Positions 47,538 to 47,918 of a stretch of 64,000 nucleotides of DNA are shown here, piece after piece (the stretch's first letter is position 1; each line of letters begins with the position of its first letter). The translations under genes were made by a program, and so were the position numbers. Where the stretch lies: NCBI GenBank assembly GCA_965224025.1, contig OZ245033.1, positions 352,001 to 416,000 of the forward strand, given 5' to 3'. The DNA comes from Candidatus Multivorans sp. (GTDB lineage: Bacteria > Acidobacteriota > Thermoanaerobaculia > Multivoradales > Multivoraceae). Below the pieces are notes generated by a model. That model searched no databases, had not been told where the DNA came from, and worked only from the letters and a program-made list of their open reading frames with translations.

Positions 47538-47781
47538 GTTCTCTGGGTGCGCGGACCTTCTGGTCCGCATCGAGCGCGATGCTGCGAAGCAGCGAGCACG
47601 AGCTTGTTCCATGCAAGTAGGAACAGCGCCCCGCTGCGCTTGCACGCAGGGAACTGGGCCGCGGACTGGCGCGCAGGCGCAGAACTGTCGCCGGCCTTCG
47701 GCCAGCGGCAGTTTTCTCCGGACTTCGCCGCTTCGCGGCTTCGCCCGGAAGCGGACCAGAAGGTCCGCGCACCCAGAGAAC
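47538..47781. repeat. Inverted REP doublet (REPIN-like)
   Basis: Perfect 31-bp inverted repeat, 47538-47568 and 47751-47781. Confidence 0.85.
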
Positions 47782-47856
47782 CGCCGTCGACGCGTTGTGG
47801 TTCCCTGCTGCAGTTGACATCGCCGTGGGCGCCTTTGGCGGCCAGTTCCATGCAAG
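47618..47856 (+). mobile_element. Putative non-autonomous IS110-derived mini-element
   Basis: Starts with a homologue of the IS110 left end (CAGCG..CGCTGCGCT....CGCAGGGAAC) and ends in GTTCCATGCAAG, identical to the IS110 right end. Confidence 0.55.
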
Positions 47857-47918
47857 CATGCGCCTCCGACTCGCTCCCGCTACCTTCGGCGGCGCAAGCT
47901 CCTAGAATCCTCCCTGCA

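Follow-up and report, generated by a model that had tools for sequence, protein, structure and literature searches.

Arrays of repetitive extragenic palindromic (REP) sequences and bacterial interspersed mosaic elements (BIMEs) that come with REP-associated tyrosine (RAYT; Y1) transposases are built of palindromic extragenic repeats that stand between genes in alternating orientation, and IS4321 and IS5075, two insertion sequences (IS) of the IS1111 group, have their insertion sites in the terminal repeats of transposons of the Tn21 family. In Pseudomonas putida KT2440, the IS110-family element ISPpu9 lies in REPs and has a transposase-less counterpart with boxes resembling the IS ends, MITEPpu9, which occurs either just downstream of ISPpu9 or by itself, in some cases duplicated in tandem, and for which mobilization in trans has been proposed (PMC12288879). 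The bridge RNA of IS621 has a left target guide and a left donor guide that repeat, in the same sense, the left target or the left donor together with the core (Durrant et al. 2024, PMC11208160), and head-to-tail noncoding units that keep left-donor boundaries at IS110 loci, together with partial fragments at independent sites, have been reported (Hu et al. 2026, 10.64898/2026.08.14.744561). Here, we analyze a stretch of 64,000 nucleotides from Candidatus Multivorans sp., an acidobacterium (GenBank assembly GCA_965224025.1, contig OZ245033.1, positions 352,001 to 416,000; this whole stretch is hereafter the window, and positions in it carry the prefix w). The window contains a full IS110-family element, IS-A, and an intergenic transposase-less unit of 239 bp, element Y, which directly follows an earlier, REP-containing family remnant, element X. 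We consider it fairly likely that Y is a derivative of a bridge-RNA-guided IS110-family element that was stacked behind X at the 5' edge of a REP hairpin with the help, in trans, of an element of the type of IS-B, a sister of IS-A described later.

An earlier note on the window, made from its sequence alone, had pointed out that w47604-47617 are identical to the right end of the IS110 element at w12423-12436 and run at once into a left end, forming a junction of the donor type. Both points hold, as the 14-mer TTGTTCCATGCAAG is present at the two places and the right end, AG and left end follow each other exactly, with the left-end pattern at w47632. The 12-mer GTTCCATGCAAG has three matches in the window against 0.21 expected, a number reached by 0 of 100 shuffles; the sites are the right end of the full element, w47606, and w47845, and the spacing between the last two is 239 bp. 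The pattern CGCTGCGCTN4CGCAGGGAAC, for which 0 matches are expected, occurs in the window only at the IS left end (w10800) and in the locus, where it falls inside the left-end stub of Y (w47632-47654). A second right end finishing at 47856, which had also been noted, is followed by CATGCGC, and the IS right end by CCTGCGC. Y keeps a left-end stub of ~40 bp and a right-end stub of ~24 bp around REP-type cargo. Inside it there is no transposase and no bridge RNA, and the note's statement that transposase and guide loops are absent agrees with the level of similarity of the interior to IS-A or IS-B, which does not exceed chance: the best match, at 22.3 bits, was equalled or beaten by 46 of 100 shuffles, and when the IS region served as a blastn query against the genome, no match at E<=1e-5 fell on the Y locus.

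To place these ends within a family, we turned to IS-A, which is present in 14 copies in the source genome (G000; 5.14 Mb in 3 contigs) and whose transposase matches the Pfam models DEDD_Tnp_IS110 (1.1e-25) and Transposase_20 (2.9e-11). All 14 copies read CTAGGAG/TGTCC... on the left and ...GTTCCATGCAAG/ on the right (the slash marks the element boundary), and what follows on their right is mostly the 5' arm of a REP hairpin, nYTGCGC(G/C)GCAG. Unoccupied REP edges of the form C(T/C)AGGAG followed by 2-3 nt and GCGC account for 23 of the 144 matches to the REP-arm pattern, and 9 of the 144 are preceded by ATGCAAG instead. A filled site has, in addition to the element, one AG more than an empty site, which makes AG the core dinucleotide and CTAGG-AG-CCTGCGC, the 5' edge of a REP hairpin, the target of the family. 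The junction of a circular donor would accordingly read ..CATGCA-AG-T... A single IS-A copy was also identified behind CTAGGAG in another species of the genus (L012, G048:C2:1346423-1350739), and its transposase is 100% identical to that in the window, which points to recent transfer or very recent activity.

The guides of the bridge RNA were identified by comparing 59 orthologous loci from Pseudomonadales metagenome-assembled genomes (MAGs), the aligned left ends of which gave 57 distinct sequences; 14 of these were truncated, disrupted or misaligned and were excluded, leaving 43 that could be scored. The left target slot equals the element's own left flank plus core at 7/7 positions in 39 of the 43 left ends and at 6/7 in the other 4. 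Among 13 distinct types of target guide, 12 match their own flank at 7/7, and a non-cognate match of that quality was found in only 1 of 156 pairs. The left donor slot covaries with the right ends of the lineages (ATGCGAG, ATGAAAG, ATGGAAG, ATAAGAG, ATGGGAG, ATAGAAG, and ATGAGAG). The sequence GCGCAGGC is the probable right target guide of IS-A: it fits the right flank of the copy in the window at 8/8 and six other distinct IS-A right flanks at 6-7/8. We call it probable only, because the signal is modest (at least 6/8 in 14 of 39 cognate and 195 of 1,278 non-cognate comparisons) and partly confounded by the similar REP targets of many lineages.

Since the left-end RNA, when folded as a single sequence, did no better than shuffles (z = +1.1), 22 sequences were folded comparatively (w10862-11046), which gave two stem-loops and compensatory changes in 18 of the 33 pairs predicted. 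The two same-sense guides are located 3' of the upper hairpins, and the probable right target guide is on the 5' side. No curated bridge-RNA family was usable, since an Rfam search of w10600-12700 (E<=1) returned only a chance match to gntR-DTE with 20.3 bits against a gathering score of 63.6. Like IS621, the family has a recombinase with DEDD and Tnp_20 domains, a noncoding RNA in the left end, a core common to donor and target, and a REP target; unlike IS621, its core is AG rather than CT, and the order of the guides is reversed in this clade. The earlier note had taken CGGAC as a guide and, because the first bases of Y do not match it, had suggested a sister element as the helper. The sister is retained here on the strength of the ATGCAAG slot of IS-B, but CGGAC is rejected as a guide: CCCGGACC is conserved among orthologs whose left ends differ and pairs with GGTCT with covariation, which identifies it as a stem.

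IS-B was found in two halves. At C1:909014 of the source genome, a left end ~81% identical to that of IS-A lies directly behind GTTCCATGCAAG and has a bridge RNA (C1:909026-909290) without a transposase, and at C1:2129247-2130563 there is a transposase with 85% identity and an intact frame of 446 aa without a bridge RNA. The halves (C1:909026-909300 and C1:2129247-2130620) are 1.2 Mb apart in opposite orientation, and because ATTTGAAT adjoins inverted GGGGATTATA ends at both break points, it looks as if another IS with an 8-bp duplication inserted into IS-B and an inversion followed. The target slot of IS-B reads ATGCAAG, the right end of the family itself, and not CTAGGAG. Two intact IS-B copies with the same target slot are present in G051, another species of the genus; each has as its left flank GTTCCATGCAAG, which there ends a transposase-less unit. 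In one of these stacks, CTAGGAG is followed by a ~57-bp unit, IS-B, a ~140-bp unit and a REP arm; in the other, a ~57-bp unit, a ~98-bp unit, IS-B and a REP arm follow each other. All three IS-B left ends (one in the source genome and two in G051) therefore obey their own guide and lie behind a family right end. This target slot and this placement explain the donor-type junction at w47617/47618, and chromosomal junctions in which a right end, AG, and a left end succeed each other are accounted for as the ordinary left junctions of insertions aimed at the family right end.

Target guides resembling right ends are not confined to IS-B, as they make up 5 of the 13 types (ATGCAAG, ATGAAAG, ATGCGAG, ATGGAAG, and ATGAGAG). 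They include a reciprocal pair from Ca. Azotimanducaceae MAGs, in which L055 has the target guide ATGCGAG and the right end ATGGAAG, and L079 has the target guide ATGGAAG and the right end ATGCGAG; each seems to be aimed at the other's tail. A separate observation concerns G000:C1:4134219-4134400, where a family right end runs straight into the 3' portion of a bridge RNA of the IS-B type, with no transposase after it. The fusion point is the place at which the RNA gene encodes the ATGCAAG target guide, as though the DNA that codes for the guide had been used as a target or as a site of recombination.

Several features of Y agree with an origin of this kind. It sits at a family target with an AG core on both sides, its left boundary ATGCA-AG/T being what the IS-B target guide specifies and its right boundary being a REP arm, and 7 of the 8 bases on its right, G+CATGCGC, agree with the probable right target guide of IS-A. 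Beyond the IS-derived stubs, its ends align with a subfamily of 147 bp that has three other complete copies, on C1 at 1161 kb, 3864 kb and 4163 kb, whose left flanks are CTAGGAG, CTAGCAG, and ATGCAAG and which are followed by REP arms. Copies resembling the cargo, ~130 bp long with 80-91% identity, occur elsewhere in the source genome and in relatives. That Y is a nonautonomous unit derived from IS110 and similar to a miniature inverted-repeat transposable element (MITE), and thus an element of a known kind, is supported by these data. The earlier description of a tandem MITE-like unit of 239 bp is borne out by the stub, the right end, the AG core and the 147-bp relatives, except that the first 14-mer, which it had counted with the unit, belongs to the preceding element X. 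In the proposed sequence of events, the right end of X and the arm of the REP would have formed the site ATGCA-AG-CATGCGC; a recombinase and bridge RNA supplied in trans by a helper of the IS-B type would have recognized, as its donor, the junction of right end, AG, and left end in Y's own circle; and Y would have been inserted as a small circle into that site. The coordinates of the features concerned are collected in table 1.

Table 1. Positions in the window of the features of the X/Y locus and of the full element IS-A
Feature	Position	Strand	Remarks
IS-A left target and core, CTAGG-AG	w10778-10784	+	CTAGGAG in 14/14 genome copies and in one G048 copy, with unrelated sequence upstream
IS-A, full IS110-family element	w10785-12436	+	Left end with bridge RNA, transposase coding sequence w11063-12382, right end with core AG; 14 copies, 99.6-100% identity
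Probable right target guide GCGCAGGC	w10893-10900	+	Reverse complement of G+CCTGCGC; first loop, 5' side
Left target guide slot CTAGGAG	w10921-10927	+	Equals left flank plus core
Left donor guide slot ATGCAAG	w10989-10995	+	Equals the right end of IS-A itself
Element X, remnant	w47510-47617	+	REP-A(+) unit and extension, ending in GTTCCATGCA-AG (w47606-47617); REP-A core in ~70 genome copies, extension in ~20
Element Y, transposase-less 239-bp unit	w47618-47856	+	Bounded by ATGCA-AG/T on the left and ..CATGCA-AG/CATGCGC on the right
Left-end stub of Y	w47618-47657	+	Begins with T behind the core; hairpin weakened; ..GCAGGGAAC as subterminal repeat; similar to the IS-B and IS-A left ends
Cargo of Y	w47687-47812	+	GC hairpin, REP-A in minus orientation and its tail; host-type repeat module with 5 to 76 genome copies along its length
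Right-end stub of Y	w47833-47856	+	..TTTGGCGGCCA and GTTCCATGCA-AG; common to the 3 copies of the 147-bp subfamily
REP hairpin with the family target at its 5' edge	w47857-47905	+	Folds as a hairpin, z = -2.0

The explanation that competes best with this one, although we regard it as unlikely, is that Y, or its junction of right end, AG, and left end, arose by half-match recombination: the resident multicopy IS-A would recognize the right end of X as a left donor through its donor-binding loop, and no re-programmed helper would be needed. The left donor guide of IS-A, ATGCAAG, does match the right end of X in full, and IS-A is available in 14 near-identical copies while IS-B is split. Left-end-like stubs also follow orthologs with the CTAGGAG target guide (L034, L050, and L063), so stacking can arise without a target guide of the right-end type, a point that counts against our proposal as well. 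Insertion by half match has been reported (Xie et al. 2026, 10.64898/2026.08.31.748434), and tandem noncoding units next to IS110 elements are reported to keep, at their boundaries, matches to the left donor alone (Hu et al. 2026, 10.64898/2026.08.14.744561). The bases of Y argue the other way: its left-end stub shares 33 of 40 bases with IS-B and 28 of 40 with IS-A, the first two bases past the core are TA in Y and in IS-B and TG in IS-A, and the IS-B copies themselves lie behind a family right end in 3 of 3 cases, in agreement with their target slot.

We attach still less probability to the idea that Y arose when a captured circle was integrated by homologous recombination in the REP cargo, leaving a permuted copy, or that a full IS-B decayed in situ. 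REP-A material does flank the junction on both sides, X has no left-end stub, and Y is a single copy, all of which such histories would accommodate. They are harder to reconcile with the sequence to the right of the left-end stub, which resembles REP-A(+) weakly, with the interior of Y, in which the comparison given earlier found no residue of IS-A or IS-B, and with the match of the ends of Y to a 147-bp subfamily whose members are ordinary insertions at three other target sites. That the locus is a host REP or BIME cluster that merely resembles IS110 ends, whether because IS ends mimic REPs or because parts of REPs spread in some other way, is highly improbable even though the interior of Y consists of host-type repeats in 5-76 copies, REP-like sequence near the ends is to be expected of a family that targets REPs, and genomes that lack a close transposase often have many copies of the 12-mer, because the stubs stop exactly at the IS termini with the AG core and flanks as in the IS, the right-end 7-mer is specified by the donor slot of the bridge RNA and covaries across lineages, and no Y1 transposase was found in the source genome by a search that matched 6 of 14 controls.

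A number of observations weigh against insertion of Y by an IS-B-type helper and lower our confidence in it. The unit of 239 bp is single copy, and apart from the REP modules most of Y occurs nowhere else in the genome; its left-end hairpin is degraded in comparison with the perfect 7-bp stem of IS-A, and its left-end stub scored E = 6e-6 against a profile in which Y itself was one of the 10 seed sequences. The probable right target guide of IS-B (reverse complement GCTTCGAC) fits the right flank of Y at only 4/8 positions. For the right donor guide, expected as the reverse complement of the core and first left-end bases, no consistent slot was found among the aligned left ends, so donor compatibility on the left-end side is judged from similarity. 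No left-end stub was detected by nhmmer upstream of the right end of X, which bears on the history of the left half of the stack. Finally, an empty site for Y was not found within the same species, and neither an excised nor a joined form of Y was seen in contigs, which drop rare forms. Transposition in trans, as the earlier note had suggested, therefore stands in part: a sister helper is likely, and this exact copy, single and without an excised form in contigs, would have moved in that way. Because of its single copy, its weakened left-end hairpin and its split helper, Y is now probably a fossil, an inert relic.

The locus itself (w47496-47919) lies between a TraB/GumN-family gene that ends at w47495 and a gene for a MaoC-like dehydratase that begins at w47919. 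Its REP "doublet," an inverted pair of 42 nt with 90% complementarity (w47530-47571 and w47748-47789), is real as described in the earlier note and is one REP-A in X plus one REP-A in Y. The hairpin to the right of Y is the original target at the locus; its right arm ends in CTCCTAG (w47899-47905), and the orthologous hairpin in a relative (G001) is unoccupied and preceded by CCAGGCG. The 12-mer is absent from 9 of 9 syntenic loci of other species, where the spacers are ~107 to 844 bp long. Contigs of the short-read runs X23 and X24 cross both junctions of the locus without differences, which rules out a misjoin but is not independent biological evidence, since both may come from the sample that was assembled. 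An X-like unit is also present in contigs of runs X2 and X24, where the sequence departs from that of the locus exactly past w47617. Small-share runs from sponge and marine metagenomes covered only the REP parts and were uninformative on the locus. A scan of w47400-48000 found 0 promoters and 0 terminators, leaving a promoter at the junction without support. On the left side, the end of the upstream gene (w47470-47510) is unlike that of its orthologs, which finish with ..CCTCCGGAGGGCTAG; insertion of a repeat or a deletion may have remodeled its last codons, and X may for this reason be truncated.

Transposase-less relatives of Y were collected with a left-end-stub profile built from 10 stubs, that of Y included, at a cutoff of E<=0.01. 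In the source genome this profile identified 59 sites, which comprise the 14 IS-A copies and 45 transposase-less stubs. The latter are flanked on the left by C(T/C)AGGAG in 21 cases, by a variant with one mismatch in 8, by ATGCAAG in 8, and by other sequences in 8; a right-end-like 12-mer lies no more than 400 bp from the stub at 29 of the 45, and ~20 of the units are only ~54-59 bp long. A genome-wide search for the motif, which the earlier note had recommended, returned 37 occurrences of GTTCCATGCAAG against 1 for the reversed control, and its copy number varies across the genus: among 42 genomes of the genus, the count ranges from 0 to 37, compared with 0-1 for the reversed control, and a close transposase (E<=1e-60) is encoded in only 4 of the 42. 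One genome with 32 copies of the 12-mer (G013) has no transposase at that threshold, weaker IS110 relatives not having been searched for. In 16 regions of it that hold 17 12-mers (L089-L104), 11 terminate a uniform unit of ~95 bp composed of left-end stub, REP, and right end, with left flanks of the CTAG(C/T)AG type and diverse right flanks, and some of these units are in tandem.

REP-type repeats number in the hundreds in the source genome, with ~130 copies of one type, counted as blastn matches, and ~70 of REP-A. The former, a different and very abundant type, is located just to the right of IS-A in the window (w12461-12529), and a few of its copies are cargo inside transposase-less units. 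High copy number, palindromy, and alternating orientation are true of the cargo of Y and not of its ends. No Y1 (RAYT) transposase matching PF01797 was identified in the source genome, which is 100% complete by marker genes, and the same model matched 6 of 14 control genomes. The arrays studied here thus differ from those of the REP/BIME-RAYT kind in having IS110 ends as their boundaries and in the absence of a detected Y1_Tnp gene from the genome. They recall IS4321 and IS5075 in that a member of IS110/IS1111 targets the end of another mobile element, although that element is an unrelated transposon in their case and the right end of the same family in ours, which leads to head-to-tail stacks.

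Comparison with the IS110-derived systems shows which aspects are familiar. MITEPpu9 carries the small RNA gene ssr9 and is present in 8 copies, whereas the cargo here is REP material or nothing, the units go down to ~54-59 bp, a single genome contains 45 transposase-less left-end stubs, and the target guide of a sister IS reads as the family right end. The units of Hu et al. lie beside the transposase module and are explained by half matches; for the stack described here, the closest IS copy within the window is ~35 kb away, and the re-programmed target guide provides a full-match explanation, although the supplements of that paper may hold similar cases. REP-targeting IS110 elements, IS110-derived MITE-like elements, tandem noncoding units, and re-integrating fragments are already in print. 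What may be new is that a target guide specifies the right end of its own family, as it also does in the reciprocal pair, together with the size and diversity of the population of mini-elements and the reversed order of the guides. Our literature search found no report of a guide with such a target, though supplements could contain one.

Beyond the single locus, we propose, as a tentative generalization that in our judgment falls somewhat short of an even chance, that the target guide has repeatedly been re-programmed from the REP edge CTAGGAG to the family right end and that stacking is a programmed "safe-harbor" strategy, in which donors of ~54-59 bp moved in trans build BIME-like arrays without a RAYT and the junctions of right end, AG, and left end are left behind as live sites. 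If this is true, such donors could build BIME-like arrays in genomes that lack RAYTs, chromosomal junctions such as that at w47606-47628 mimic a circular donor, and resident recombinases could use them for inversions or deletions against any REP target. The interest of the finding therefore resides in the picture of the family rather than in the probably inert copy of 239 bp. It would represent a natural re-programming of bridge RNA, in which a change of seven target-guide bases turns scattered insertion into ordered stacking. The units of ~54-59 bp, which consist of a left-end hairpin stub and a right end, are a possible minimal natural donor and bear on the design of donors for bridge recombinases. 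For the genomes that harbor the family, the stacks may offer a RAYT-independent route for the growth of REP-rich intergenic arrays, and their donor-like chromosomal junctions are possible hot spots of RNA-guided rearrangement.

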